Counted from the stretch's first letter, positions 2,170-55,026 are shown. The stretch is 64,000 nt of DNA from Candidatus Magasanikiibacteriota bacterium (GCA_041665025.1 JBAYJP010000001.1:211996-275995), one strand, 5' to 3'. Numbers and translations are program-made. The notes: generated from the letters alone by a model not told the origin.

Positions 2170-3177
2170 TTACAACGTCTGAAGCATAGCCAAAAATGCA
2201 CGACGAGGATCATGTTTACTTGTCACACAATGGTAAATCACGTGTGCGAAAGGCGCGTGCACATGATATTTTCTTACAAGACGCATAAGACAATGAATTG
2301 CGTCTACCCCCTCTACTGTCTGTTTAACCATCTCACGTGCTTTGTCTCCTGTATACCCTTTTCCCAAATATTCTCCAAACGTTCGATTGCGGCTCTCGTG
2401 CGCAAAAGATGTAACAATAAGATCCCCAACCCCGGCAAGTTCGTACGCGGTCCTACGTCTACCACCCATTGCTTGAATAAGATCAGAAATTTCTCTGAGC
2501 GCATAGGTAAGCAACGCCGCTTTGGTATTTAATCCATATTTCATGCCGTCGCACATGCCTGTAGCAATGGTGTATGCATTTTTGAAAGAACCTCCAATTT
2601 CGACACCAATGACATCAGTAGTGGGGACTAGTTTCACATAATTATTTTCCATCGCACTCCTGACTTTATTCATAGCTTTTTTGTTTTTCGAGGCAATATT
2701 CATAGCGGTAAATTGCCTGCGTGCCATTTGGCTTGCGATAACAGGTCCGGAAATAGTCACAACATTTTTACGAAGTTTTGGACGAATATGTTTGCATATA
2801 ATATGAGGCATCAAGCGTAAGCTATGAGGTTCTATTCCCTTTGATACATCAACTATAATTGCATCATGGGCGATACTGCGTGCCGCAAATGAAATCGTAT
2901 GTTCAAGCACACCGCTTGGAATAACCAGAAAAACAATTTCCGAACCCTCAAGCGCTTCAGCAATTTTGAATTTAGGTACAATATTTTTGGGAAGTTTTAT
3001 TCCTTTTAAATATTTTTTGTTTTCATGATACTTTTCAATTTGGCGTAATGGTTCATGATCTCCTTCCCAATTCCAAATCCGAACCTCATAACCATTTTCA
3101 GCCAACACAAACGCAACGGCAGTACCCATGTTGCCGGCACCCAATACGGTAAGAATTTTCTTTTCGTTTTTATCCAT
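2170..3177 (-). CDS. gpsA: NAD(P)H-dependent glycerol-3-phosphate dehydrogenase
   Basis: Rossmann motif LGAGNMGTAVA, plus GPVIASQ and GDLIVT motifs. The ORF-track start at 3231 runs into the inverted repeat; the true start is MDKNEKK at 3177. Confidence 0.9.
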   Translation of the reverse strand: MDKNEKKILTVLGAGNMGTAVAFVLAENGYEVRIWNWEGDHEPLRQIEKYHENKKYLKGIKLPKNIVPKFKIAEALEGSEIVFLVIPSGVLEHTISFAARSIAHDAIIVDVSKGIEPHSLRLMPHIICKHIRPKLRKNVVTISGPVIASQMARRQFTAMNIASKNKKAMNKVRSAMENNYVKLVPTTDVIGVEIGGSFKNAYTIATGMCDGMKYGLNTKAALLTYALREISDLIQAMGGRRRTAYELAGVGDLIVTSFAHESRNRTFGEYLGKGYTGDKAREMVKQTVEGVDAIHCLMRLVRKYHVHAPFAHVIYHCVTSKHDPRRAFLAMLQTL

Positions 3178-3189
3178 ACAAATAATAAT

Positions 3190-3224
3190 CAAGATACAAG
3201 AAACAAATAAATTGCAATAACCAA
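3190..3224. repeat. left arm of 35-bp perfect inverted repeat
   Basis: Verified by base-by-base reverse-complement comparison with 3641-3675. Confidence 0.85.
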
Positions 3225-3227
3225 ACA

Positions 3228-3623
3228 TCAATTATTTCTATCTTTTCCTGATTTCTCTTTTATTTTTTCCTTCTTTTTGATTATTGAAGAAAATATTTTA
3301 TTAAGTTCTATGCTTTCTTGTAGTAAGGGCTGCATTCTGACTTTAAGCTGGGAGTTATTTTCGATAATCAATCTCAACCAATATATAGATTCTTTAGCTT
3401 CTTTTCTTACAATTCTTAATCTGAATAAAAAATCTTTATCTCCAAGACAATCATTGGCTTCTCGATAATTTGCCCCCATAGATGAACTGGAACGGATGAC
3501 TTGATTTGAATAATATAAATTTGTGTCGCTCCTCGGTAGTTGTTTAGTCATATTCAAAGTTCTTTTCGCAAACTCAAAAGTTCTTTCTTCCAAATCAAAT
3601 GTATGCTCTCCGCCTTCATTCAT
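3228..3623 (-). CDS. four-helix-bundle protein of the 23S rRNA intervening-sequence protein family
   Basis: Family pattern FEFAKRTL...LP...Y.L..Q..RS..S...N..EA....KDF...L.IA..E..E..YWL.L is present. Start could be the GTG at 3629 or the ATG at 3623. Confidence 0.75.
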   Translation of the reverse strand: MNEGGEHTFDLEERTFEFAKRTLNMTKQLPRSDTNLYYSNQVIRSSSSMGANYREANDCLGDKDFLFRLRIVRKEAKESIYWLRLIIENNSQLKVRMQPLLQESIELNKIFSSIIKKKEKIKEKSGKDRNN

Positions 3624-3640
3624 AATCACATTGTTGTTTC

Positions 3641-3675
3641 TTGGTTATTGCAATTTATTTGTTTCTTGTATCTTG
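3641..3675. repeat. right arm of 35-bp perfect inverted repeat
   Basis: Reverse complement of 3190-3224. Confidence 0.85.
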
Positions 3676-3686
3676 TTTATTGAAAA

Positions 3687-4499
3687 TTATAAAAATAATA
3701 AAATCAAAACTCCAATAATCACTCTATACACCACAAATGGCAAAAAACTCCACTTCTGTATTATTTTCATCAACCCCCAAATCGCAAGCAAACCACTTAT
3801 TGCCGACGCCACAAATCCTGCAATGAGCATCTCGACACCGACCGCTTCAAAACCGTTTTTTATCATATCAATTAATTGCATACCACCGGCAAGTGTAATA
3901 ATCGGAACACTCATGAGAAATGAAAATTCTGCTGCGCTTTTTTTATCCAATTTTGAAAACAATCCCGCTGTCATAGTAATACCTGACCGACTGGTTCCGG
4001 GAACAAGTGCGACAGCTTGTGCACAACCAATAAACAATGCGGTACGCCAATTTACCTTCTCTAATGATTGTTGATTGTTGATTGTTGTTCGTTGAACACG
4101 ATCTGCAATAAACAAAACAACTCCCCATACAATAAAATTCACTCCAATAATCCACGTCGCACGCAAGTTCTCTTCTATCCAACTGTCAAATAGGATTCCA
4201 ACAATTCCGGCTGGGATTATACTCAAAATAATTAACCAGGCTAATTTTCTATTACTGCTCCCTGTTCCTTGGTCGCTGTTCACCAGTAACACGCTCTTCA
4301 ACATCCCCAACAACTTCTTTCTAAAATACACAACCACTGCAACGAGTGTGCCAAGATGTATAAACGTATCGAACGCAAGTCCCTGATCTGCCCAACCAAA
4401 TAATTTTGGTAAAAAAATAAGATGGCCAGATGATGAGACGGGCAGGAATTCAGTAAGACCTTGAATTATTCCTAAAACAATTGCTTGAAGTATAGACAT
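3687..4499 (-). CDS. uppP: undecaprenyl-diphosphate phosphatase
   Basis: N-terminal MSILQAIVLGIIQGLTEFLPVSSSGHLI is the UppP/BacA signature; multi-TM protein. Confidence 0.9.
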   Translation of the reverse strand: MSILQAIVLGIIQGLTEFLPVSSSGHLIFLPKLFGWADQGLAFDTFIHLGTLVAVVVYFRKKLLGMLKSVLLVNSDQGTGSSNRKLAWLIILSIIPAGIVGILFDSWIEENLRATWIIGVNFIVWGVVLFIADRVQRTTINNQQSLEKVNWRTALFIGCAQAVALVPGTSRSGITMTAGLFSKLDKKSAAEFSFLMSVPIITLAGGMQLIDMIKNGFEAVGVEMLIAGFVASAISGLLAIWGLMKIIQKWSFLPFVVYRVIIGVLILLFL

Positions 4500-4581
4500 G
4501 CAATAAGTATAGCAGAAATATTGACAAAATTCTATAAATATGATATTATTTTGCGAAACTTACGCGCGGAAAGGGGTTGAC

Positions 4582-4812
4582 ATGGAAAAGACCCGCGCCG
4601 AGTTGGAGAGCCTTCTGCCGGAAGATCCGGCAATGGCTCTGCTGGTGCTGGCCGGCCTGATCTTCGCGTTCATGGTCGGCTGGTTGGTATTTCGGCTTCG
4701 CGCTGCGAAGCGTGTGGCCGAGACACTCAACTTCGAGACCGAGCGCCCCGCTCGCATCGCCGCCTTCGAAGAGAAGTCGGCTGAGCAGGATGGGACGCTC
4801 GTCGTCCGCTGA
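4582..4812 (+). CDS. small single-TM hypothetical protein encoded in a high-GC island (about 60% GC, GC3-rich codons)
   Basis: SD GGAAAGGGG followed by ATG. Protein MEKTRAELESLLPEDPAMALLVLAGLIFAFMVGWLVF... Codons are GCC/CTG/GGC/CGC-rich, unlike the host. An antisense ORF (4546..4842, TTG start) is also open, so the coding strand is not certain. Confidence 0.35.
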   Translation: MEKTRAELESLLPEDPAMALLVLAGLIFAFMVGWLVFRLRAAKRVAETLNFETERPARIAAFEEKSAEQDGTLVVR

Positions 4813-4923
4813 GAAAAAGGAGAAGGAAGATGAAACTTCCAAACAGCGGCGGGGTGCGAGTCTACATGCGCCCTAGCCGCTCCCTGCCATGAGATATTGA
4901 AATATCAATGCATCATGATACTA

Positions 4924-17907: not shown

Positions 17908-18005
17908 GTGATAGTTTGTAAAGTTAAAAGTTATAAAGTAAAAAGTTACTAGAGTAAAAAACTAAAACTTTATAACTTGGAACTTTACAACTTTTAACTT
18001 TGGAG

Positions 18006-24858: not shown

Positions 24859-25977
24859 TTACTCCTTCGGCGGAATCGTGTACCCGAGATATATCCAGCT
24901 ATCTTTTTCTGGATGGACGTACAACACCGTTGGTATTTGCTGTGAAGGAAGTTTGCGCGTTTCCCAGGTCTTGCCACCGTCAGCACTGCGATAAAATGTC
25001 GAACGGTTGTCTAGCGTGCCGGTATAATATACTTCTTTATCATTTTTTGGATTAATTGCAAATCCATAGATATCTACACTCCCCGGAGGAGTAACCAAAT
25101 TAATTGCTTCCCACTCTTCTCCGGCATTGCGTGATGTTATCACACCATATTCAGAAATCCAATATATTTGTTCTGCTTTTTGAGGATGTAAATACAATCG
25201 GCGAAATTCAAGCGAACCAGGAAATCCGCTAAATCTATCTTTCAAATTTTCCCAACTAGCACCGCTATCTCTGGTTCGAAAGAGACCAGAATCTCTGGTC
25301 GCTACGTAGAGCAGACCTTCTTTATTATTATCAAATGAGATTTGCTGAAGTTTGTTACCAAAACGATTTGCCACGAGCCAATTTTTGCCCATGTCTTCAC
25401 TCTTGAGCAAATCCCCATTATCCTCAGACATATATATGTGCGTTGTCTTGAACGGATCAAATGCTACAGATGTAATAGCGTCAGACGCCCGAGCCTCACG
25501 AAAAATTTCAGTCCATGACCGCGCACAGTCGTCGGATTTAAATACCTGGCGTCCATTGGTAGCCACAAACGTACATTTATCTTTTGGATGAACAGAAAGA
25601 CTATACAAAAATCCCAAATTAAATGGCTCTACTGAATGCGCCCATGATCTTCCTTCATCAAAACTATAAAAAAGTCCTTGTTCCCGTGATGCCCAATACA
25701 AAGCCTTGTTATCTTGAGGATCGGTAAACAAACGATACACTGAGACGCTCGTAAGCTGTTTGACCCCGTCTACGGCTGGCATTGCTGACAACTGTTTCCA
25801 TGTTTCCCCTTTATCAATACTTAAGAAAAATCCAGCAGGTCCCGATGTCTTTGTTCCACCTGACCCATCAAGAGAAATACAGCTCTGACCCATGGTGACG
25901 ACAGCCATGAGCAACACGCTAAACGTTATGAAATATTTTTTGGTGCGCATATATTGTTTATTAAAATCAAAACTCAA
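24859..25977 (-). CDS. BNR/Asp-box repeat beta-propeller protein (Ycf48-like), secreted or lipoprotein
   Basis: Seven S-x-D-x-G-x-T/S-W Asp-box repeats (SIDKGETW, SFDEGRSW, SDDCARSW, SEDMGKNW, TRDSGASW, SRNAGEEW, SADGGKTW); N-terminal signal with Cys. Confidence 0.6.
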   Translation of the reverse strand: MSFDFNKQYMRTKKYFITFSVLLMAVVTMGQSCISLDGSGGTKTSGPAGFFLSIDKGETWKQLSAMPAVDGVKQLTSVSVYRLFTDPQDNKALYWASREQGLFYSFDEGRSWAHSVEPFNLGFLYSLSVHPKDKCTFVATNGRQVFKSDDCARSWTEIFREARASDAITSVAFDPFKTTHIYMSEDNGDLLKSEDMGKNWLVANRFGNKLQQISFDNNKEGLLYVATRDSGLFRTRDSGASWENLKDRFSGFPGSLEFRRLYLHPQKAEQIYWISEYGVITSRNAGEEWEAINLVTPPGSVDIYGFAINPKNDKEVYYTGTLDNRSTFYRSADGGKTWETRKLPSQQIPTVLYVHPEKDSWIYLGYTIPPKE

Positions 25978-26117
25978 AATTCAAAGTTCAAATCTATATC
26001 TTAAAACTTAAAATTGTAAAAAGATTTTAGTTTTAAGTTCCAATTTTGAATTTTGAGATTTGATTTTTGAATTAATACTCTTAAACTTTTATTAACAAAA
26101 TGGTTAAAATGTGTGAT

Positions 26118-27032
26118 TCACGGCAACTGTAACAAAATATGCTCCGTCAACAACCGTGGATGAATATTTTCTTCCAAATATTTCCGCGCTTTACTAATAT
26201 CATCTGAAACCGAAATAATCGTCTTATCACTCAAATTTGAATTACCCTCACGCGCCATTTGATTCAGTTCAATTTGCCAAATAGACAATACATCTTGCAA
26301 ACGTTCACGCGCTTTTATGTGATCTTCTTTGTCTCCAAATAATTTCTCAACTATGCTCAATTTTTCATAAAACGGCTTTCGGAGCAATCCTTTAAATCGA
26401 TTAATTTCTTGCTTATATATCTCAAAAGATTCAGCATCATTCGCCCATTCCCATGCCTTACCTGGAATGCCCTGGCAATACTCTGTAAGTTCTTGTGCTC
26501 TATCTGGCTCAATAACATTTTTTTCAAGCCATGACGCGATTTTTCTTTGATTTACTAACGAAAAATAAAAAAGCTGGCAACGCGAACGAATAGTCCCAAG
26601 CAATTCTTTTTCATTTTGTGTAATAAGAAAAATAACTGTCTTGCCGCGCGGTTCTTCCAAAGTTTTTAAAAGTGCGTTTGATGCGGCAGTACTCAAAAAT
26701 TCTGCATGGTCAACAATGGCAACACGATATCCACCAGGCAAAAAAGATGTTTGGGATAATTGTGAAATAGCACTGCGTACTTGCTCAATACTAATATCTT
26801 TTTTTAATTTTTCGGTTTTTTCATCTACTATGCGTTCAACTACTATATAGTCAGGATGCATTTGGATTTTGTCGCGTGTAGTTTTGAGAAGCCGAGCAGC
26901 TAACTCTTGGGCCACTGTAAATTTTCCTACGCGCCCTGGACCGCAAAAACAATAGGCGTGGCCTAAATTGCCGTTTTGTATGACATTATCAAAAAAAGAA
27001 AGGATGTTATCATGTCCCACGATGTCGTGCAT
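26118..27032 (-). CDS. holB: DNA polymerase III delta-prime subunit (clamp-loader AAA+)
   Basis: GHAYCFCGPGRVGKFTVAQELA Walker A-like motif; about 300 aa. Confidence 0.8.
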   Translation of the reverse strand: MHDIVGHDNILSFFDNVIQNGNLGHAYCFCGPGRVGKFTVAQELAARLLKTTRDKIQMHPDYIVVERIVDEKTEKLKKDISIEQVRSAISQLSQTSFLPGGYRVAIVDHAEFLSTAASNALLKTLEEPRGKTVIFLITQNEKELLGTIRSRCQLFYFSLVNQRKIASWLEKNVIEPDRAQELTEYCQGIPGKAWEWANDAESFEIYKQEINRFKGLLRKPFYEKLSIVEKLFGDKEDHIKARERLQDVLSIWQIELNQMAREGNSNLSDKTIISVSDDISKARKYLEENIHPRLLTEHILLQLP

Positions 27033-27201
27033 ATATGCTTAGTGTAGCATAATTGGGTTTAAGAGACAAGAAACAAGATACAAATAAAATCTCAATTTCC
27101 AATTTTCAAAATATTCACAGCCAGCCCTTGACGTCTCTCTCTCTCTTTGCTAGGGTTACATATCGCACTTGTCCTGGTGCGATGGAACAAGGAGACAGAG
27201 G

Positions 27202-27420
27202 ATGAAGCGCGAAGTTTCACCGACGGACTTCACAGCAGTGCTTGAGTACGAACCTCAGGAGGCAGCCGAAGCCGAAGCCGAGGCGGCAATGCTCAAGGCT
27301 GAAGGATGGAGGGTTCTCCTCCGTGAACCGACTGTCGACGGCAAAAGGAGACGCGCGGTGTTGGTCCCGGAGTGCACCGAGCTGACCGCGATCCGGTGGT
27401 TCAAAGAGAACAAGCACTAG
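27202..27420 (+). CDS. hypothetical small protein in high-GC island; an antisense ORF (27217..27447) is equally plausible
   Basis: SD AGGAGACAGAGG then ATG; protein MKREVSPTDFTAVLEYEPQEAAEAEAEAAMLKAEGW... The antisense ORF has SD GGAGGUCG then AUG and begins MWVVVGGEKLVLVLF. Confidence 0.3.
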   Translation: MKREVSPTDFTAVLEYEPQEAAEAEAEAAMLKAEGWRVLLREPTVDGKRRRAVLVPECTELTAIRWFKENKH

Positions 27421-27571
27421 CTTCTCACCGCCTACAACAACCCACATCGACCTCCGCTCTCATCTACCTACCACGACACCCTCAGGGCGTCCTTCCTCCA
27501 GCGCCCGCGCATTGGTTATCTCTGCCTTCCAGCGGACATAGTCAGTGAAAATCGCTGGAGAGGAAAAATAA

Positions 27572-27603
27572 AAATCACCCATGAAATTGGGTGATTTTTT
27601 TAT
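27572..27603 (+). terminator. intrinsic terminator
   Basis: aaaaatcaccca-tgaaat-tgggtgatttttttat. Confidence 0.5.
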
Positions 27604-27623
27604 AAAATGTATGGTGGTGATGC

Positions 27624-27751
27624 GATACAACCTACCCTCCATCTCCCTCCCTTACTAGGGAGGGAGAGCCCACTTATATATCTAAATCAAACATTTTAGG
27701 GCGTCCCTCCTCCATTTGTAAGGGAGGAGGAAAGGAGGTAGGTTGCATTAC
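27624..27751. repeat. pair of GC-rich hairpin modules (about 50 bp each, about 80% identical) in inverted orientation
   Basis: Left arm caacctaccctccatctccctcccttactagggagggag matches the reverse complement of right arm gtccctcctccatttgtaagggaggaggaaaggaggtaggttg. Each arm also folds on itself. Confidence 0.45.
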
Positions 27752-27758
27752 AGAATCA

Positions 27759-28898
27759 TTAATCCATCAAAATCTCCAACGTCTCTCTCGCACACTTCTC
27801 CCACGAAAAATCTTTCACTCTTTCTAATCCTCTATTCACATTCTGCATTCTGCATTCTGCATTCTGCATTGCTTCACTAACTCCACGCGCAATATCCTCA
27901 ACACTCATCGGATCCACATACACGCATGCATCTCCCCCAACCTCTTCGAGGCTGTTTCCTTTTGACGCGACCACGGGTGTACCACAGGCCATGGACTCAA
28001 GCACGGGAAGTCCAAAACCTTCATACAAACTAGGAAAAACAAAAACTTCCGCCGCATTCAAAAGGTATGGCAAATCTTGTTCATCTACCCAACCTGGAGT
28101 GACAATGTCATGTTTAAAAACACTATTACTCAGAGTGTGTCTCACCTCTCCATAGCCATATCCTGGTTTACCAACAAGCAACAATTTCAGATTTTCAGTT
28201 TCTGATCCTAAAGTAGTTTTTAATTTATTAAATGCCTGGATGATTCGTGTGGTATTTTTCTTTTCTTCAAGTCTACCAACACTCATAATAAATGGCTTTT
28301 GAATTGAATATTTTTTCAATACCTTTTCAATACCTTTTTCATCTTCAATCTTTTTATATTTCTCATCATACCCATGTTGTACCACAAAAACCTTATCATT
28401 ATTCTGAATTCTCAAATCTGCATTCTGCAATTCTTCTTTTACAAATTTCGAGGGCACAATCACTTTCCACGCTCGTTTTAACGCATACCGCGCCGACCAA
28501 ACAGAATACCACCGCTCAAACCAATTGTACGACTCTGGAAATTTTATTGCGGCAGTATCGTGTATCACGGCTACTGTTTTTTTTGGATGAATCAACGGCA
28601 TGACATGCGCAGGAATAAACAATACATCTGGAGGATTTCTAAACATTTCCCAACTTAATCTGATTTGCGTCCACAATCTCTTTGGCCACCATGCGAGTAC
28701 TTTTTGTGTCCAATTCTCTGGTAACTCCACCAACTCTCCTTGTAAAGGTTTATCCGTATACAATACAAATTCAATTTCCTCCGTGGTCCCTATTCCCTGT
28801 TCCCTATTGTACATTTCTGTAATCACACGAAAGGCGTATTCTTCCACACCTGTTCGTTGCTCACCGTTTGCCCGTGACGCATCAATACCGATGATCAT
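27759..28898 (-). CDS. GT4-family glycosyltransferase
   Basis: C-terminal EGFGLPVLESMACGTPVVAS (the E-x7-E region). Contains an ATTCTGC x4 tandem heptamer near its 3' end. Confidence 0.8.
   Translation of the reverse strand: MIIGIDASRANGEQRTGVEEYAFRVITEMYNREQGIGTTEEIEFVLYTDKPLQGELVELPENWTQKVLAWWPKRLWTQIRLSWEMFRNPPDVLFIPAHVMPLIHPKKTVAVIHDTAAIKFPESYNWFERWYSVWSARYALKRAWKVIVPSKFVKEELQNADLRIQNNDKVFVVQHGYDEKYKKIEDEKGIEKVLKKYSIQKPFIMSVGRLEEKKNTTRIIQAFNKLKTTLGSETENLKLLLVGKPGYGYGEVRHTLSNSVFKHDIVTPGWVDEQDLPYLLNAAEVFVFPSLYEGFGLPVLESMACGTPVVASKGNSLEEVGGDACVYVDPMSVEDIARGVSEAMQNAECRMQNVNRGLERVKDFSWEKCARETLEILMD
27840..27867. repeat. tandem heptamer (ATTCTGC) x4 inside the GT4 coding sequence
   Basis: Direct reading; encodes AECRMQNAECRMQN in the C-terminal tail. 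Confidence 0.8.
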
Positions 28899-30110: not shown

Positions 30111-30181
30111 CATGTACGAAATACGAAAACTACGAAATGTACGAATTTCGAATATTTCGCAGTTTTCGTATTTCGTACATA
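30111..30181. repeat. 71-bp AT-rich palindrome built from TACGAAA-type words
   Basis: gtacgaaatacgaaaactacgaaat is near-reverse-complementary to atttcgcagttttcgtatttcgtac (1 mismatch). A related palindrome lies at 48566-48641. Confidence 0.7.
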
Positions 30182-31188: not shown

Positions 31189-31195
31189 AAATTAT

Positions 31196-31318
31196 TCTAA
31201 TTATTCTAATTAACCTAATTATTCTAAAACAAATCCCAATTTCAAATTACATTAAATGTGTATAAGAAACCTTAAAGTAATTGGTCATTTTTTAGAATAA
31301 TTAGAACAATTAGAGTAA
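31196..31318. repeat. intergenic palindromic array of ATTATTCTAA words flanking the mreB upstream region
   Basis: attattctaattattctaattaacctaattattctaa ... tagaataattagaacaattagagtaattaa. Confidence 0.7.
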
Positions 31319-32812
31319 TTAAAAATGTACATCAAAACTTCTGTCTACCCTTAGATCTGTATTCAATTCATAGATAGAATCTCCCCACTTTTCCTGCGCT
31401 TCACCAGGGTTAGCAGATGTAATAGTTTTACCAAAATCCAGGTCAAGCGTCAATGGTGGCGCAAGTGTTCCTATTTGTTTTTGAATACGTAATGTATACA
31501 AACCTTTTTCAACGAGTTCTTTTATACCATCGGGCAACTGATACATAAATTGTATATTTCCTGTATTTCCCGGTTCAATTGATACAAATACACCAAACCA
31601 TTTTTTGCCAAGTTCTGTTCCCTGATCAACGCTACTCGGTTCAAAAGTTTTTACATTCTTTCCATTGTTTACCATGACAGTCACGAGCTCTGATCCATCG
31701 GGTACAAAAATACGCGTATACGTACGATATCGTGTCGTTCGCCAATCAAATGTTCCCTTATGTACATACGTCATAGATGCAGAAGCCAAATAGCGTTCTA
31801 CCTCTGATTCATGCGCCGGAGGACGCCGCGACAATGAATAATGCAAAGAACGTTCAATAGCATGATCAGTTTTCAATGCTGCCAAATTTGCATCTGCCCA
31901 CAAAAGATAATCTCCCTCTGTATCAGCCATGGTGCCATTCCAGCCTTTTTTATCTACCATTTTTTTCAAAGATTCAGATGAGGAGTACACCACAATATGC
32001 TTTTCAGAAGCAAGTGTATTGACCATAGCCCCATATTCATCTATTCTTTTCCACGCATCATTTTTGAGCCGTGCAAGCAATTCGAGCATAAGTGGCCCCA
32101 TAATTTTTTTTCGTTCCAAAAAGTGAATACCTTTTTCATCATATCCATATTCAACTTCATATTCTAATTTTTCAGTGACGTCGTCTGCAGTAAAGGTAAT
32201 GCCGTCAATCGTAATAGGGCCAACTTTTTTCATGATTTCTTCAAGCACGGTCGTGTCTATACCTACAACGGCGTCAATATCCCCTGATTTAACTCCACCT
32301 TCTCCCGTAAATAATTCAAGGCCTTTTTTTGCGCTCTCTGCAAAATCAGGAAACCAATTACTATCTCTAAAATACCACCGATCAACTTTCAACTGCTCTC
32401 TAAGTATTGCGGGCGGTACCGGGCGCCACGAATCGGGCGTATCTCTGTCAATCCTTTCGGTTCCTTCCATTTTGTCTATCTGCATGTTTCCTTTGTCCAA
32501 AGTAACAACCGCGTATGAACCAATAAACCCGCCGCCAGGCCGCAGTTCGGTATTATTTAAAAATAATAATAAATACGTCTTTGGTTCAGAAAACCCAAGC
32601 AACTCTGGCAATGCTTCAAGCAATTCTGTCCCGCTTTCTCCAAACTGGCGCTCAACTTGCTCCCGTACAAATGGAGATTCAACAATTTGTTCCGGGGTAA
32701 TACTGCTTAACCAATGATACAAAAACCACGCACTGCCTAAAAATAGGATAGCAAAAGCAAGTAATATCCATGGCCACTTTGGCGGTTTTCGTTCAAAGGG
32801 GTTATTAAACAT
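31319..32812 (-). CDS. hypothetical membrane-anchored extracytoplasmic protein (DUF4012-like)
   Basis: Single N-terminal TM helix followed by a large soluble domain; no catalytic motif recognised. Confidence 0.35.
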   Translation of the reverse strand: MFNNPFERKPPKWPWILLAFAILFLGSAWFLYHWLSSITPEQIVESPFVREQVERQFGESGTELLEALPELLGFSEPKTYLLLFLNNTELRPGGGFIGSYAVVTLDKGNMQIDKMEGTERIDRDTPDSWRPVPPAILREQLKVDRWYFRDSNWFPDFAESAKKGLELFTGEGGVKSGDIDAVVGIDTTVLEEIMKKVGPITIDGITFTADDVTEKLEYEVEYGYDEKGIHFLERKKIMGPLMLELLARLKNDAWKRIDEYGAMVNTLASEKHIVVYSSSESLKKMVDKKGWNGTMADTEGDYLLWADANLAALKTDHAIERSLHYSLSRRPPAHESEVERYLASASMTYVHKGTFDWRTTRYRTYTRIFVPDGSELVTVMVNNGKNVKTFEPSSVDQGTELGKKWFGVFVSIEPGNTGNIQFMYQLPDGIKELVEKGLYTLRIQKQIGTLAPPLTLDLDFGKTITSANPGEAQEKWGDSIYELNTDLRVDRSFDVHF

Positions 32813-42233: not shown

Positions 42234-42998
42234 GTGGCTATACTAGCCACTTTTAGTTATCCTATGGAGATACAAGAGCTTAAACAAAAAATAGTCTTTT
42301 TTATCAAAGAAAAAGCTGGAGATAAACCAGTTGTTTTGGGTTTGAGCGGGGGGATAGATTCCGCCCTTGTCGCCTATCTTGCAGTCGAAGCGCTTGGCCC
42401 AAGCAATGTATATGGGGTTATACTTCCATCTTCAACCAACTCTAATCAGGATCTCATTTACGCAAAAAAAATAGCAACAAATCTTAATCTTCAATCTTTA
42501 ATCTTCAATCTTGAACCAATTTTAAAAGCTTACCAAGAATCTACCAATAAACTTTTTTTCTCAAAAAAATCTTTAGGTAATCTAAAAGCACGGATACGGA
42601 TGTCTATATCGTATGGTAAAGCAAATGAGCTAAACGCTCTCGTTCTTGGCACTGGCAACAAAACAGAACTTATGGTTGGTTATTTTACCAAATATGGCGA
42701 CGGCGGAGTTGATCTACTTCCCATTGGAGATTTATACAAAATTGAAGTGAGAGAACTTGCAAAGTATATTGGAGTACCGCAAGAAATTATTGACCGCGCG
42801 CCAACTGCCGGATTGTGGGAAGGACAAACTGACGAAGGCGAACTTGGAATAACATATAAGAAATTAGATAAAATTTTAATGGCAATAGAACGTGGAGAAA
42901 ATCTGGAGTATTTTGACAAGGACGATGTTGAACAAGTTAAACAGCGGATTAAAAATGCGGGACACAAACTCCGCACGCCTCCAATTTGCAAAATTTAA
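42234..42998 (+). CDS. nadE: NH3-dependent NAD+ synthetase
   Basis: PP-loop VVLGLSGGIDSALVAYLA. The start may be the internal MEIQEL at 42264. Contains an AATCTTN x5 heptamer array at 42479-42514. Confidence 0.85.
   Translation: MAILATFSYPMEIQELKQKIVFFIKEKAGDKPVVLGLSGGIDSALVAYLAVEALGPSNVYGVILPSSTNSNQDLIYAKKIATNLNLQSLIFNLEPILKAYQESTNKLFFSKKSLGNLKARIRMSISYGKANELNALVLGTGNKTELMVGYFTKYGDGGVDLLPIGDLYKIEVRELAKYIGVPQEIIDRAPTAGLWEGQTDEGELGITYKKLDKILMAIERGENLEYFDKDDVEQVKQRIKNAGHKLRTPPICKI
42479..42514. repeat. tandem AATCTTN heptamers (about 5 copies) inside nadE
   Basis: aatctt aatcttc aatcttt aatcttc aatcttg; encodes NLNLQSLIFNLE. The same AATCTT word is also tandemly repeated in the intergenic region 24765-24810. 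Confidence 0.8.
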
Positions 42999-43083
42999 CA
43001 GAACACGAATATAGTAAATTAAACGAATCAAAACGAATTCGTTAAAATCAGTTTCATTCGTTCAATTCGCGTTCCATTACGAT

Positions 43084-44436
43084 ATGTCAAAAGCGCTTTT
43101 TATAGGAAGATTTCAACCCTTTCACCTCGGCCACCTAGATGCACTAAAACAAATCACTGAAGACGAGATTATTATTGGGGTTGGAAGTTCACAATATAGC
43201 AGAACTGATGAAAATCCGTGGGCGTTTGAAGAACGAAAGCAAATGATTGAGCAGTCGCTTGCAAACGAACACTTTAATTATTCAATTACCGCGATACCTG
43301 ATATCCATGATGAAAAAAATTGGGTAGACCATGTAAAAAAAATCGTCGGTGATTTTGCTGTTGTATATACAGGCAATGATGTTGTCAAAAAATTATTTAA
43401 AGAGAAGGGATACAGAGTGAAAGAGGTAGGAGTTAAGGTTAAAATTTCTGGAACAGAAATACGCAAGGAAGCTAATCGACTATTTGAAAAACTTTCTAAA
43501 ACAAAGAGAACCATGTCCTACTGTTTGAGTATTGCGCCACTCACACTTGAAATAAATCAACTCAAAAAAGAACAAAATGCCATCATACTCGCCCACTCAT
43601 ATCAGACAACCGATATCATGTACGGCGTTGCAGATTTTATTGGCGATTCATATGGACTAGCAAAAATAGCATCACAACATGACGCGCAGAAAATAATTTT
43701 CTGTTCAGTACATTTCATGGGAGAAACGGCAAAAATATTAAATCCAAAAAAAGAAGTATTGGTACCGACAATGGCAGGATGCTCTCTTGCAGAGAGTATT
43801 ACCGCAAAAGATGTACGAAATCTAAAAGCAAAATATCCGGGAGTTCCTGTAATTACCTATGTGAACACAACGGCAGAAGTAAAAGCTGAAAGCGATATAT
43901 GCTGTACTTCGTCTAACGCCCTGAAAATTATAAACTCTTTGCCTAATGAACAAGTTATTTTTATTCCAGACAAACTCATGGGACAAAATCTACAGAAAAA
44001 GACAGACAAGAAACTTATTTTATGGAATGGAACGTGTATCGTGCATGAACAATTTGATAAGCAAGCTATAGACAATATCCGCGCACAATTTCCAGAAACA
44101 AAGATATTGGCACACTATGAATGTACATCATCGGTAGCTGATAATGTAGACATGGTCGGAAGTACCGGAGAAATGCTAAAATATGTACAAGAAAATCCTG
44201 CCGAACATTACATGCTTATTACTGAGTGTGGCATTACGGACAGAGTTCAAACAGAATTTCCAGATAAACACATTGTAGGCAGTTGTCAACTTTGCCCGTA
44301 TATGAAACAGATTAAATTAGAGGATGTGCTCACTGCATTACAAAATCCCAGAGAAGAGCAGATTATTTCTATTCCGAAGGATATACTTAAGAGAGCGAAA
44401 AAAAGTTTGGATAGGATGATGGAATTGGGCAAGTAA
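43084..44436 (+). CDS. nadA: bifunctional fusion: archaeal-type nicotinamide-nucleotide adenylyltransferase (NadM-like) plus quinolinate synthase (NadA)
   Basis: N-terminal 140 aa FIGRFQPFHLGHL cytidylyltransferase (HxGH) fold. C-terminal 300 aa NadA with its conserved cysteines (ILAHSYQ, FMGETAKILNP, CIVHEQF, GSCQLCPYM). Confidence 0.75.
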   Translation: MSKALFIGRFQPFHLGHLDALKQITEDEIIIGVGSSQYSRTDENPWAFEERKQMIEQSLANEHFNYSITAIPDIHDEKNWVDHVKKIVGDFAVVYTGNDVVKKLFKEKGYRVKEVGVKVKISGTEIRKEANRLFEKLSKTKRTMSYCLSIAPLTLEINQLKKEQNAIILAHSYQTTDIMYGVADFIGDSYGLAKIASQHDAQKIIFCSVHFMGETAKILNPKKEVLVPTMAGCSLAESITAKDVRNLKAKYPGVPVITYVNTTAEVKAESDICCTSSNALKIINSLPNEQVIFIPDKLMGQNLQKKTDKKLILWNGTCIVHEQFDKQAIDNIRAQFPETKILAHYECTSSVADNVDMVGSTGEMLKYVQENPAEHYMLITECGITDRVQTEFPDKHIVGSCQLCPYMKQIKLEDVLTALQNPREEQIISIPKDILKRAKKSLDRMMELGK

Positions 44437-45782: not shown

Positions 45783-45859
45783 TTCGTTTCGATTCGTTAG
45801 ATCCGTTTCATTCGTGTTCTATTTCTTAATGGCACACAAATTGAACGAATTAAACGAAT

Positions 45860-47425
45860 ATGAACGAATTGAAATTTGATTTTCTTGTTATCGGCTCAGG
45901 CATCGCAGGCCTGAATTTTGCATTGGAAGCAAGTAAATATGGCACTGTCGCGATTGTAACAAAAAAAGAATTGATGGAAAGCAATTCAAATTATGCTCAA
46001 GGTGGCATTGCCGCGGTACTTGATAAGATGGACAATTTTGGTAGTCATATAGAAGACACACTACAAGCCGGTTGTTATCTGAATGACAAAAAAGCTGTTG
46101 AAACCATGGTAAAAGAAGCGCCAAAGCAAATCCAAAAACTGATTAAAATTGGTGTTGGTTTTAGTAAATGTGAAGATAATCTCTGTTTAACCAAAGAAGG
46201 CGGGCATTCTATGCGTCGTATTGCCCATGTGCATGATACGACCGGAAAAGAAATAGAGCGCGCGTTGATTCACCAGGTGCGGCACAATGCGCGCATAAAA
46301 ACATTTGAATCTCATGTGGCGTTTGAATTGTTTATAAATAATCAGGGATTAGGGAACAGAGAACAGCAGACAAAATCTGATCCCTATTCCCTGTTCCCTA
46401 TTCCCCAATGTTTAGGTTCATTCGTCTTAAACACCGAAGACAATGAGATTTTAGCATTCCAGGCAAAAGCCACAATCCTCGCAACCGGCGGAACAGGTCA
46501 AGTATACAAGCGAAATTCAAATCCAAAAATTGCAACGGGCGATGGGGTGGCTATGGCATACGAAGCAGGGGCAGAAATTCGCGACATGGAATTTATTCAA
46601 TTTCATCCAACCGCGCTTGCAAAAAAAGGCAAACCGGCTTTACTTATTTCTGAAACAGTTCGCGGTGAGGGTGGAATTCTAAAAAACGCCAAAGGCGAAG
46701 CATTCATGAAAAGTCTCCACAAACTAAAAGACTTGGCACCACGCGATATTGTTTCTCGCGCGATATTTGAAGAGATGAAACAAGGACCAGTATATTTGGA
46801 TATCCGACATAAGGGAAGCACCTATATCAAACAACGATTCCCCTACCTCTACAACGAACTCTGGTGGTACGGAGTGAAAATGGATACAGATCTTATTCCT
46901 GTCGCTCCAGCCGCTCACTTCACCTGCGGTGGAGTTCAGACAAACTTAAACGGTGAAACGAATATTTCCGGACTATTCGCATTTGGTGAAGTAGCACATA
47001 CGGGTGTACATGGTGCAAACAGGCTGGCGTCAAATTCGTTGCTGGAGTGTATGGTATTTAGTTCACGAGCTGTGACCGCAGCAAAAAAGTATATTAAAAC
47101 GTGTAGCGATGTGAAAGGAAATAAAGAAGGATTTTTACGTAACACATATCACGTAACCCATAGCAAAAACCTAACGATAGCAAAGTTGAAAAGAGATATT
47201 CAAACACTCATGTGGGAGAATGTTGGAATTGTAAGAAAAGAAAAAAAGATGAAAAAAACACTCGAAATATTAAAAAGATATGAAAAAGATATTAAAATAA
47301 TATTAAAAAACGGTGTAAATAAAGAAATTCTTGAGTTGAAATCATTGTGTATTGTTGCTACACTTATCACGCAAGCTGCACTAGAGAGAAGAGAAAGTGT
47401 GGGGACACATTTTATTATTCCGTAG
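45860..47425 (+). CDS. nadB: L-aspartate oxidase
   Basis: FAD motif DFLVIGSGIAGLNFAL and a succinate-dehydrogenase/fumarate-reductase-flavoprotein-like core. Confidence 0.9.
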   Translation: MNELKFDFLVIGSGIAGLNFALEASKYGTVAIVTKKELMESNSNYAQGGIAAVLDKMDNFGSHIEDTLQAGCYLNDKKAVETMVKEAPKQIQKLIKIGVGFSKCEDNLCLTKEGGHSMRRIAHVHDTTGKEIERALIHQVRHNARIKTFESHVAFELFINNQGLGNREQQTKSDPYSLFPIPQCLGSFVLNTEDNEILAFQAKATILATGGTGQVYKRNSNPKIATGDGVAMAYEAGAEIRDMEFIQFHPTALAKKGKPALLISETVRGEGGILKNAKGEAFMKSLHKLKDLAPRDIVSRAIFEEMKQGPVYLDIRHKGSTYIKQRFPYLYNELWWYGVKMDTDLIPVAPAAHFTCGGVQTNLNGETNISGLFAFGEVAHTGVHGANRLASNSLLECMVFSSRAVTAAKKYIKTCSDVKGNKEGFLRNTYHVTHSKNLTIAKLKRDIQTLMWENVGIVRKEKKMKKTLEILKRYEKDIKIILKNGVNKEILELKSLCIVATLITQAALERRESVGTHFIIP

Positions 47426-47462: not shown

Positions 47463-48563
47463 ATGATAATCCTTGGCATCGAAAGTTCATGCGACGATAC
47501 ATCAGTCGCATTACTGGATATAACAGACGACCACATTGAAATCCTTGCGGAAAAAACTGCAAGCCAAATTGATGTACACAAAAAATATGGCGGGGTCGTG
47601 CCAGAGATTGCGGGACGAAAGCATGCGGAAAAAATTGTACCATTGGTTGAACATATTCTTGAAGAAGCTAGGGTTACTAAACCTGATGTAATTGCAGTTA
47701 CGTCTGGTCCGGGTTTAATAACGGGACTTGTGGTGGGAGTTGAAACAGCCAAGACGCTTTCTTATTTATGGGATGTACCTATTGTAGGTGTGAATCATAT
47801 TGAGGGACATATACATAGTGTAAAAATTCCAAATACCAAGATACAAGATACAAATAAATTTCCAATTTCCAATTTCAAATTTCCAGTACTTAGTCTCATT
47901 GCATCAGGAGGCCACACAGAACTTATCCTTTCTAAAAAACAAGGAGAATATGAACGAATAGGAAGTACAGTAGATGATGCTGCTGGAGAATGTTTTGACA
48001 AAGTAGCAAAACTGCTTGGGTTTGATTATCCTGGTGGACCAAAAATTTCAAAATTTGCTGAAACAGGAAACCCCCATGCCATAGAATTTCCTCGACCAAT
48101 GATACATTCAAAAGACTTCAACTTTAGTTTTGCCGGACTCAAAACCGCAGCACTCTATTGGCTGCGAGATAATCAATTATCTGCTTCTCACACACTATCT
48201 TACGAACTTCCAGCCGGAATATTCGGACAAACACCAGAACAACCCACGATCAACGACTTTTGTTCAAGTTTCGAACAAGCTATCATTGATGTCCTGGTTA
48301 CTAAAACCCTCAACGCAGCAAAAAAATACAAACCAAAAACTGTTATTTTAGGTGGTGGAGTTTCTGCAAACAAAAAATTACGTGAGACATTACAAAAAAG
48401 CATTGAAGAAAATTTTCCGGCTTCTAGTTTCTTTCTTCCCTTACCCAAGTATGCCATGGACAATGCGGCCATGATAGCTGTTGCGGCATACCATCATGTA
48501 AAAAAGAAAGAATTTACGTTGTGGCAAAAATTACAAGCAAATCCAAATTGGAAAATATATTAA
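47463..48563 (+). CDS. tsaD: tRNA N6-adenosine threonylcarbamoyltransferase
   Basis: MIILGIESSCDDTSVALL, GVNHIEGH and SGGHTEL motifs. Contains AATTTCC-type heptamer repeats at 47838-47884. Confidence 0.9.
   Translation: MIILGIESSCDDTSVALLDITDDHIEILAEKTASQIDVHKKYGGVVPEIAGRKHAEKIVPLVEHILEEARVTKPDVIAVTSGPGLITGLVVGVETAKTLSYLWDVPIVGVNHIEGHIHSVKIPNTKIQDTNKFPISNFKFPVLSLIASGGHTELILSKKQGEYERIGSTVDDAAGECFDKVAKLLGFDYPGGPKISKFAETGNPHAIEFPRPMIHSKDFNFSFAGLKTAALYWLRDNQLSASHTLSYELPAGIFGQTPEQPTINDFCSSFEQAIIDVLVTKTLNAAKKYKPKTVILGGGVSANKKLRETLQKSIEENFPASSFFLPLPKYAMDNAAMIAVAAYHHVKKKEFTLWQKLQANPNWKIY
47838..47884. repeat. tandem heptamers (CAAGATA x2, then AATTTCC/AATTTCA x4) inside tsaD
   Basis: Direct reading; encodes KIQDTNKFPISNFKFP in a loop between the GVNHIEGH and SGGHTEL motifs. 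Confidence 0.85.
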
Positions 48564-49589: not shown

Positions 49590-49695
49590 TAATTTTTAAT
49601 TTACAATTTACAATTTGAAAACAATTCACAATTTCTAAATTTTTTAATTTAAAATTGTTTGTAAATTGTAAATTTCAAATTGAAAATTTATTTAT

Positions 49696-54896: not shown

Positions 54897-55026
54897 ATTC
54901 AACGTGCAATTTTACTACTAGAAATCACATAGCACATAACACGTAACATAAAAACAAAAAAATCTTTAACACGTTTTTGTTATGTGTTATGTGTTATGTG
55001 TTATGTGCTATGTGTTACGTGAACAC
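54897..55026. repeat. palindromic array of ACATAAC / GTTATGT heptamer words
   Basis: cacatagcacataacacgtaacat...gttatgtgttatgtgttatgtgctatgtgttacgtg. Confidence 0.7.

Follow-up and report, generated by a model that had tools for sequence, protein, structure and literature searches.

A 64,000-nucleotide stretch of a 283-kb contig from the genome of Candidatus Magasanikbacteria (Patescibacteria, or Candidate Phyla Radiation, CPR; GCA_041665025.1 JBAYJP010000001.1:211996-275995), called the window in the following, contains a 498-bp unit (3184-3681) between the genes uppP and gpsA. The unit appears to be composed of a small four-helix-bundle (S23p/Avd-like) gene, the cargo, and its own terminal inverted repeats (TIRs), the arms, built of units of about 7 nt. 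It was interpreted as a self-contained, horizontally mobile hairpin cassette of the intervening sequence (IVS) type, inserted in sense orientation into an mRNA operon at the uppP/gpsA junction, and this interpretation is given a probability of roughly 60%. A preliminary description of the locus had offered two options, a mobile IVS-like cassette or a stem-loop processed by RNase III which separates the messages of the two neighbouring genes. The former is favoured on the basis of an empty site with overlapping genes in related genomes, another bracketed gene in the same slot, and the recurrence of the arms elsewhere along with a homologous gene.

The uppP gene, the cargo gene and gpsA are all situated on the minus strand. 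The exact 35-bp inverted repeat around a single four-helix-bundle gene, reported in the preliminary description, was confirmed; no such repeat was observed in 100 dinucleotide-preserving shuffles, and with few mismatches it reaches 48 nt at 92% complementarity. On the minus (coding) strand, the upstream arm is A/C-rich and composed of about five 7-nt units (CAAGATA CAAGAAA CAAATAA ATTGCAA TAACCAA), which are degenerate and A/T-rich. Its outer end is positioned 5 nt from the uppP stop codon and its inner end 4-10 nt from the start of the cargo open reading frame (ORF). The inner end of the downstream arm abuts the stop codon of the cargo ORF, while its outer end is 6 nt from the ATG of gpsA. 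Deletion of 3184-3681 leaves 6 + 5 = 11 nt between uppP and gpsA, and the placement in a tight gap of a coding operon, also proposed earlier, was borne out. The predicted fold closes on the terminal stem with the ORF enclosed (minimum free energy -115 kcal/mol, z -4.6). A consensus scan of the coding strand found no promoter-like site inside the cassette, which fits read-through expression from the host operon.

The cargo ORF is the sole ORF inside the cassette. It encodes 133 aa from a GTG (3629) or 131 aa from an ATG (3623), and the latter version matches the NCBI/JGI protein P0001. It matched PF05635 with an E value of 6.5e-14 (52.5 bits, cutoff 33.8; residues 15-113, profile positions 7-104 of 106) and TIGR02436 with 3e-20 (72.5 bits, cutoff 24). 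By sequence similarity it resembles a solved Bacteroides protein, PDB 2RLD (E 5.4e-17, residues 12-117), and PF05635 was present in all of its 2738 homologues. The start of gpsA was placed at 3177, since the 335-aa NCBI protein P0121 is identical over its full length (100% identity, 100% coverage). The string GYCNLFVSCIL is present in two mechanically predicted ORFs (2170..3231 minus, 3523..4074 plus); these shared extensions are an artefact of reading through both arms, as had been supposed. An ENA record, L001, is identical to the window over 10,499 nt; it probably derives from the same assembly and cannot serve to confirm the raw reads independently. The coordinates of all features are collected in Table 1.

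Table 1. Features of the cassette, its host genes and the ORF-less hairpins of the window.
Feature	Coordinates	Strand	Remark
Upstream arm (transcript orientation)	3634..3681, exact core 3641-3675	core, minus	arm core also in L105/L106
Downstream arm	3184..3231, exact core 3190-3224	core, plus	complement of upstream arm
Cargo four-helix-bundle gene (S23p, Avd-like)	3228..3629	minus	PF05635 / TIGR02436
uppP (BacA), upstream host gene	3687..4499	minus	
gpsA, downstream host gene	2170..3177	minus	true start ATG 3177
Residual junction nucleotides, arm to gpsA start	3178..3183	minus	
Residual junction nucleotides, uppP stop to arm	3682..3686	minus	
Nearest promoter-like site, coding strand, upstream of uppP	4529..4557	minus	consensus match only
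ORF-less hairpins	17916-18001, 25963-26067, 30112-30180, 31190-31324, 49591-49688, 54926-55014		

The uppP-gpsA junction was compared with that of related Magasanikbacteria. The order metK, uppP, slot, gpsA, mazE-like, MFP and cca is conserved in them, and the window possesses metK, response regulator, uppP, gpsA, mazE-like, MFP and cca; the content of the slot varies. Absence of the cassette from the junction in relatives, a prospect raised in the preliminary description, was found. In L090 and L091 (gpsA 67% identical to that of the window) the uppP stop and the gpsA start overlap (GGTATGAAAAAG, ATGA), which is the classic arrangement of translational coupling. The slot of L093 (gpsA 58% identical) is a 45-nt spacer and that of L088 (66%) a 167-nt spacer without inverted repeat. 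L082 and L083 (77%) contain a cupredoxin gene there, and L084 and L085 (73%) a 137-142-aa GxxExxY gene (TIGR04256 / PF13366) within periodic inverted repeats. A GxxExxY cassette was also found in L086, L087 and L104 (71%), with arms of 39 nt at 95% in L086 and perfect arms in L104. All these GxxExxY cassettes possess their own periodic arms of 35-39 nt, which are unrelated in sequence to those of the window. The comparison shows the cassette to be an insertion relative to the related genomes and, judged from the same relatives, the ancestral state is a tight uppP/gpsA junction with overlapping and putatively translationally coupled genes. The empty overlapping site and the unrelated GxxExxY cassette in the same slot imply that the junction was struck at least twice by different stem-bracketed genes. 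A metagenome scan for gpsA relatives yielded only 5 loci, too few for a fine-scale history of the slot.

Some further features were observed at the junction and its surroundings. An imperfect 13-nt direct repeat flanks the cassette (3176-3188 / 3689-3701; ATACAAATAATAA / ATAAAAATAATAA), and both copies, in coding orientation, resemble the uppP 3' end of the empty site. This repeat may be what is left of a duplicated junction, or a fortuitous match in DNA rich in A/T. The 167-nt spacer of L088 (2830-2990) contains short direct repeats, GTAAGC three times and TATCTCA four times, which may be the remnant of an eroded element. Directly upstream of uppP a GC-rich island (4580-4890, 56-66% GC) is situated, with an ORF of 76-90 aa which possesses a hydrophobic segment and no Pfam match. 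A comparable small GC-rich ORF lies upstream of gpsA in L089 (1988-2371), and these ORFs may represent another kind of small inserted element.

The relation between the arms and the enclosed gene was analysed in the nearest relatives. The closest relative of the window protein is encoded in another metagenome (L105), where the upstream gene is NIF3-like. The proteins are 71% identical and the ORFs show 71% nucleotide identity with a longest shared run of 17 nt, whereas the arms share exact runs of 30 and 24 nt (AATAATCAAGATACAAGAAACAAATAAATT), so that in this pair the arms are better conserved than the coding sequence. In L106 (protein 69% identical), where the element is positioned between pepA and a U32 peptidase gene, the arms differ by 2-3 substitutions. 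Since the arms recur with the gene beside unrelated genes, they belong to the element. The recurrence of the arms elsewhere, considered in the preliminary description, was observed in L105 and L106 together with the gene, but not inside the window, where no second full pair exists. When flanks were aligned on the conserved protein core, members from different phyla were found to share non-coding DNA such as AAGCACCAAATAACAAATAAATTNCAATGACCAAAAT, which runs through the start codon, with its complement after the stop. A profile built from only 15 upstream arms retrieved other upstream arms and, on the opposite strand, downstream arms (50 and 41 hits) across phyla. Similarity of arms and of proteins was weakly correlated among 45 cassettes (Mantel r = 0.18, a value reached in 40 of 2000 permutations). 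In the orthologous GxxExxY cassettes of L086 and L104 (proteins 92% identical), ACGGAT is found in both arms of the former and ACAGAT in both arms of the latter; as the same position changed in both arms, complementarity was maintained through the change. Taken at the level of sequence comparison, these data show that the arms are the element's own and accompany its gene.

One genome per species was scanned, and 80 loci with relatives 46-63% identical were obtained from Patescibacteria, Planctomycetota, Bacteroidota, Chloroflexota, Omnitrophota, Nitrospirota, Desulfobacterota and others. The bracketing score was the best ungapped inverted repeat with arms sought up to 250 nt beyond or 40 nt within each end of the ORF; 409 windows of the same size, shifted by 1-2 kb at the same loci, served as controls. 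A score of at least 14 was found in 59% of 79 loci and of at least 20 in 24%, and no control reached 14 (0/409; Mann-Whitney p = 1e-39). The arms showed a self-identity of 0.61 at lag 7 and 0.55 at lag 14, and about 0.27 at other lags. As in the window, the upstream arm of the family is A/C-rich, with only 5.6% G. The cassette ORF was co-oriented with both neighbours in 34 of 39 loci and opposed to both in none (0/39), and the median gaps between arm and neighbouring gene were 24 and 30 nt. In finished plasmids of cultured bacteria found by tblastn, 11 of 12 loci scored at least 14, with controls at most 11. This reproduction of the architecture in finished plasmids excludes an assembly artefact. 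Among the plasmid arms, most consist of perfect tandem heptamers and are 31-39 nt long. The repeated unit is CAATTCG in Nostoc punctiforme pNPUN02 (five copies), TAATTCG in Nostoc C052 and in Dolichospermum, AAATTCA in both N. flagelliforme and Aulosira, and GATTAGT in Bernardetia. Such perfect tandems directly bracket four-helix-bundle genes in finished plasmids of Nostoc, Dolichospermum, Aulosira and Planktothrix. GxxExxY genes form a second cargo family, bracketed in 7 of 10 loci (score at least 16). These surveys show, in the genomes compared, that the architecture and the sense placement in operons are general for the four-helix-bundle subfamily and the GxxExxY genes. The preliminary description had also assumed that such genes normally reside inside rRNA IVS elements. 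This did not hold: no rRNA or other Rfam family was present within about 2.5 kb of the related loci (0/20), the window contains no rRNA, and residence in rRNA is, on the loci compared, the exception for this family.

Several observations were made on the cargo families and their surroundings. In finished plasmids (L108, L116, L117, L118, L110, L113; cyanobacteria and one Chloroflexota) the cassette is situated inside defence-type operons. The four-helix-bundle gene lies between cas2 and cas1 (on the opposite strand in Anabaena cylindrica), between csx2 and cas1, and between a helicase and a methyltransferase gene; a junction in which it separates DUF1156 from Swt1-HEPN is common to Gloeocapsa and Chlorohelix. 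The defence profiles of PADLOC gave no match for the four-helix-bundle protein and a marginal one only for the GxxExxY protein (E 0.009). In the viral collection neither a relative of the four-helix-bundle subfamily of the window nor the exact arm core was found, while a few GxxExxY cassettes were located on IMG/VR contigs. An RNase H-like gene of L030 (PF04308), at first sight enclosed by family arms, was withdrawn as a candidate for a third cargo: on one side it is flanked by an element's distal arm, but on the other by an independent hairpin without ORF (3955-4105).

Hairpins lacking a gene were also found. The arm profile matched paired plus/minus hairpins without a gene in L003 (232-350), L071 (60-200) and L030 (at the position just given). 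The gene-less hairpins of L036 (3398-3530) and L020 (2625-2780) retain CAATGACC, the start-codon region of the deleted four-helix-bundle ORF. These remnants show, as far as sequence can tell, that ORF-less derivatives of the cassette exist. In addition, a Planctomycetota metagenome-assembled genome (L070, 3110-3570) possesses four tandem units of 132 nt downstream of an intact cassette, each composed of an arm and the first four-helix-bundle codons. The window itself contains six ORF-less periodic hairpins (Table 1) with stems of about 25-45 bp, all in short spacers between co-directional genes and one of them between tRNA-Tyr and tRNA-Thr. Their units, such as ACGAAAT, AATTTAC and CACATAA, differ from those of the cassette. 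Often only 1-12 nt separate the hairpin from the end of a gene, a placement like that of the cassette. All six likely belong, as members without ORF, to the hairpin class of the cassette.

Neither a second four-helix-bundle gene nor a second arm pair was found in the window, and lone arm-like tracts were limited to two, at 27067 and 47837. The latter belongs to an A/C-rich heptad tract (47824-47890) inside tsaD (47463..48563, plus), one mismatch from the 24-nt arm core (CAAGATACAAGATACAAATAAATT). It is in frame, encodes KIPNTKIQDTNKFPISNFKFP in the variable loop between the HxxxH and SGGHT motifs and has no complementary partner nearby. The former (27053-27110) differs from the arm core by 3 mismatches. 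It is situated in the spacer next to a 304-aa gene (26118..27032) and directly abuts an island of about 650 bp (27110-27760) which reaches 64% GC against 39% for the genome and contains an 83-aa ORF without Pfam match and a terminator-like hairpin. Two further tracts with GAACGAAT-type units (43036-43085 / 45821-45870) are 80% complementary over 50 nt, at a distance of 2.7 kb and three genes. The first of them lies itself within a local palindrome (42996-43079), and they are probably two separate tracts, not one large cassette.

The following mode of action is proposed for the cassette. It would possess no promoter of its own and be transcribed together with uppP and gpsA. The arms would pair as an RNA duplex of 35-48 bp, looping the cargo out of the host transcript. 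With such a stem the host RNA may tolerate the insertion, as does 23S rRNA, whose stems of this kind are cut by RNase III; this tolerance would explain the presence of one element type at both rRNA helix tips and operon junctions. By analogy the stem is a likely RNase III substrate, and cutting would free the cargo mRNA and part the message of uppP from that of gpsA. An uncut stem would keep the uppP stop about 11 nt from the gpsA start and could preserve the ancestral coupling. By the same analogy, RNase III processing and mobility are plausibly compatible and not alternatives; both can be true.

Several points weigh against this interpretation. Only a single full cassette is present in 64 kb, and in this lineage it could be old, fixed and now useful to the host. 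No recognisable transposase or recombinase was found in the element, the sole ORF being the four-helix-bundle gene with no other family match, and the term mobile is drawn from comparative evidence, not from a known mechanism. A signal of target-site duplication was not observed in 44 cassettes, where the longest direct match at the outer ends was 3.6 against 3.8 in mismatched pairs, with the limit that arm boundaries are fuzzy and short duplications could be missed. The greater conservation of arms than of ORF comes from essentially one close pair of sequences. Stem formation and RNase III cleavage are argued by analogy, and the RNase III signature motif was not found in the 64-kb window, which is a small part of the genome and uninformative for the whole. 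Beyond the one compensated change, the alignments gave no positive covariation signature of RNA structure. Arm mismatches showed no excess of G·U over A·C type on the sense strand (52 and 54 overall, 7 and 11 among isolated mismatches), leaving a wobble signature of sense RNA unsupported. Taken with the near-perfect arms, this lack of G·U excess suggests upkeep of the complementarity at the level of DNA, for instance through conversion of one arm by the other, and not by selection on RNA pairing alone. With many arms perfect, it fits recent formation of the arms or their homogenisation as DNA.

The same lack of G·U excess would agree with a conventional DNA transposon or an element like a miniature inverted-repeat transposable element (MITE), mobilised in trans by a putative transposase, with a stem that plays no role in RNA. 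TIRs conserved with the cargo and internal-deletion derivatives without ORF, as in MITEs, also speak for such an origin. It is nevertheless regarded as unlikely: the 44 cassettes gave no signal of target-site duplication, no transposase is present in or near the element, and the arm sequences vary strongly from member to member, so that no repeated family is seen inside a genome. An orientation bias of 34:0 and a distance of few nucleotides to gene ends would moreover be unusual for cut-and-paste movement unless selection were very strong. The strict sense orientation inside operons and the absence of an own promoter agree also with an RNA processing or insulator module evolved by the host, in which the stem arose in situ, as an RNase III site or a stabiliser that keeps the messages of uppP and gpsA apart, the gene inside is an ordinary host gene and nothing is mobile. 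The many ORF-less periodic hairpins in short co-directional spacers, possibly a general device of the host, point in the same direction. An origin in situ, however, predicts neither the empty overlapping junction of relatives, nor the same 30-nt arm string with a related gene beside unrelated genes, nor arm motifs common to different phyla, nor a different cargo family with different arms in the same slot. This explanation is therefore considered to be quite improbable.

Two other explanations received very little credence. The arms are of low complexity, and slippage is known to lengthen heptamer tracts, which abound in some genomes (PMC4692102), so that tracts made by chance or slippage beside a small gene, or an assembly artefact, were also considered. 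Against this highly improbable account stand the exact 35-nt complement, which is not expected by chance, the specificity of the bracketing for these genes (none of the 409 controls), its presence in finished sequences of cultured organisms and the recurrence of the arm string in another metagenome assembly. An orphan or decayed diversity-generating retroelement (DGR), with the four-helix-bundle protein as the accessory factor Avd, is suggested by the resemblance of PF05635 to Avd and by the fact that no other Pfam family is found more often beside DGR reverse transcriptases (PMC10053308). No reverse-transcriptase-like ORF (YxDD) was found within about 8 kb, nor a pair of template and variable direct repeats. 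The neighbours listed above are housekeeping genes, and a bracketing inverted repeat is foreign to DGRs. For this locus a DGR is refuted in practice by the missing reverse transcriptase and template/variable repeats, and hardly any weight is left to it.

The element was compared with known systems. The closest known system is the ORF-bearing 23S rRNA IVS of Leptospira and Coxiella burnetii. The IVS of C. burnetii (helix 45), the one relative studied by experiment, possesses a 28-bp terminal stem which encloses an S23p ORF and is cut by RNase III in the middle, and heptameric GACAGAT repeats are found in the arm upstream of the ORF (PMC4990558). ORFs of the 23S_rRNA_IVP type are also present within insertions of CPR 16S and 23S rRNA (PMC11270868). 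Like the rRNA IVSs, the cassette carries a cargo of the PF05635 family, has a comparable size (about 430-500 nt) and long complementary termini around the ORF, shows heptameric repeats in the arm that directly precedes the start of the ORF, is oriented in sense to the host transcript and lacks a good ribosome-binding site upstream of the ORF (PMC4990558). Unlike them, it resides in a protein-coding operon, not at the helix tip of a 23S or 16S rRNA. RNase III excision has been shown for rRNA IVSs and is presumed by analogy for the cassette; in mRNA, cleavage would part two messages, while in rRNA it fragments a structural RNA. The cassette would work like an IVS but is not one, because it fails the defining residence in rRNA.

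Heptanucleotide tandem repeats of cyanobacteria were described by Rehm et al. 2015, together with about 70 convergent GGGAATC pairs per Xanthomonas genome. These pairs occupy intergenic spacers which separate co-oriented genes, at about 28 nt from the next ORF, and were read as G-quadruplex motifs. The tracts are treated there as simple repeats able to form G-quadruplexes; no link from heptamer tracts to enclosed genes or IVSs is drawn there (PMC4692102). Like these tracts, the arms are built of 7-nt units in tandem, which frequently form convergent pairs on the two strands, in spacers between co-oriented genes and tens of nucleotides from the neighbouring ORF, and they vary in length between relatives. 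The arms of the window differ from the cyanobacterial and Xanthomonas tracts in being imperfect heptads and A/T-rich. GxxExxY (TIGR04256 / PF13366 PDDEXK_3) genes resemble the cassette in their position in the same uppP/metK-gpsA slot, in their periodic brackets and in their sense orientation between co-oriented genes. Their proteins have a PD-(D/E)XK nuclease fold and are unrelated to the four-helix bundle, and their arms, of CCGAATAAT or CGGATAAT units, share no homology with those of the window. MITEs and TIR transposons share the terminal inverted repeats and ORF-less derivatives in which the arms persist along with a remnant of the ORF's start; in contrast to them, the cassettes show no transposase and no target-site duplication, have diverse arms instead of a multicopy family and keep a strict orientation to host transcription. 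Avd of DGRs belongs to a homologous protein fold and family, but the cassette possesses no reverse transcriptase and no template/variable repeats, and avd genes of DGRs are not enclosed by inverted repeats. A gene cassette of the integron type was rejected, as repeats are present on both sides of the ORF and not as a single 3' attC, with no integrase or cassette array. In TIGRFAMs comments, both cargo families are placed at times in 23S IVSs.

The cassette is one example of a widespread and apparently undescribed class of hairpin-bracketed cassettes, with rRNA IVSs as the only known relatives. The searchable full-text literature contained no description of such cassettes outside rRNA, subscription journals and database curation notes being beyond reach. 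A wider and more doubtful reading, less likely than not, takes heptad-repeat hairpin cassettes as an unrecognised cross-phylum superfamily of mobile elements inserted in sense into transcribed host genes, at operon junctions and rRNA helix tips. In this proposal the Avd-like four-helix-bundle or GxxExxY protein would be the element's own maintenance or mobility factor, and the elements would decay to ORF-less hairpins. The 23S IVSs, the cyanobacterial heptanucleotide tandem repeats (STRR), the inverted Xanthomonas GGGAATC pairs and the many periodic intergenic hairpins of CPR would be one element type. Movement might be coupled to transcription, to RNA or to hairpin DNA, with the pentameric protein binding about five heptads of an arm.

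Intervening sequences of rRNA have been known since 1990, and to our knowledge there is no agreed view on their origin or function. The S23p/four-helix-bundle and GxxExxY proteins are among the larger hypothetical protein families of bacteria, and heptanucleotide tandem repeats are an over-represented repeat class which has stayed unexplained for decades. The locus and the comparative data tie together the rRNA IVSs, the two hypothetical families and the heptanucleotide repeats, the link of the cassette class to the repeats being plausible. For annotation, the arms give a warning, as reading through them falsely lengthens the N-termini of neighbouring genes. Taken singly, the locus is a new instance, and the interest lies in the class, with two cargo families, heptad arms conserved along with the cargo, strict sense placement in operons and ORF-less derivatives. 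The unit of stem and ORF appears to occur mostly in protein-coding operons, to move between genomes with its own arms and to leave ORF-less hairpins behind. It raises the hypotheses that the protein binds its own arms, that RNase III excises the cargo from mRNA and that the stem preserves the coupling of the split genes. If the mechanism of mobility is new, these cassettes would represent an additional class of bacterial mobile elements.

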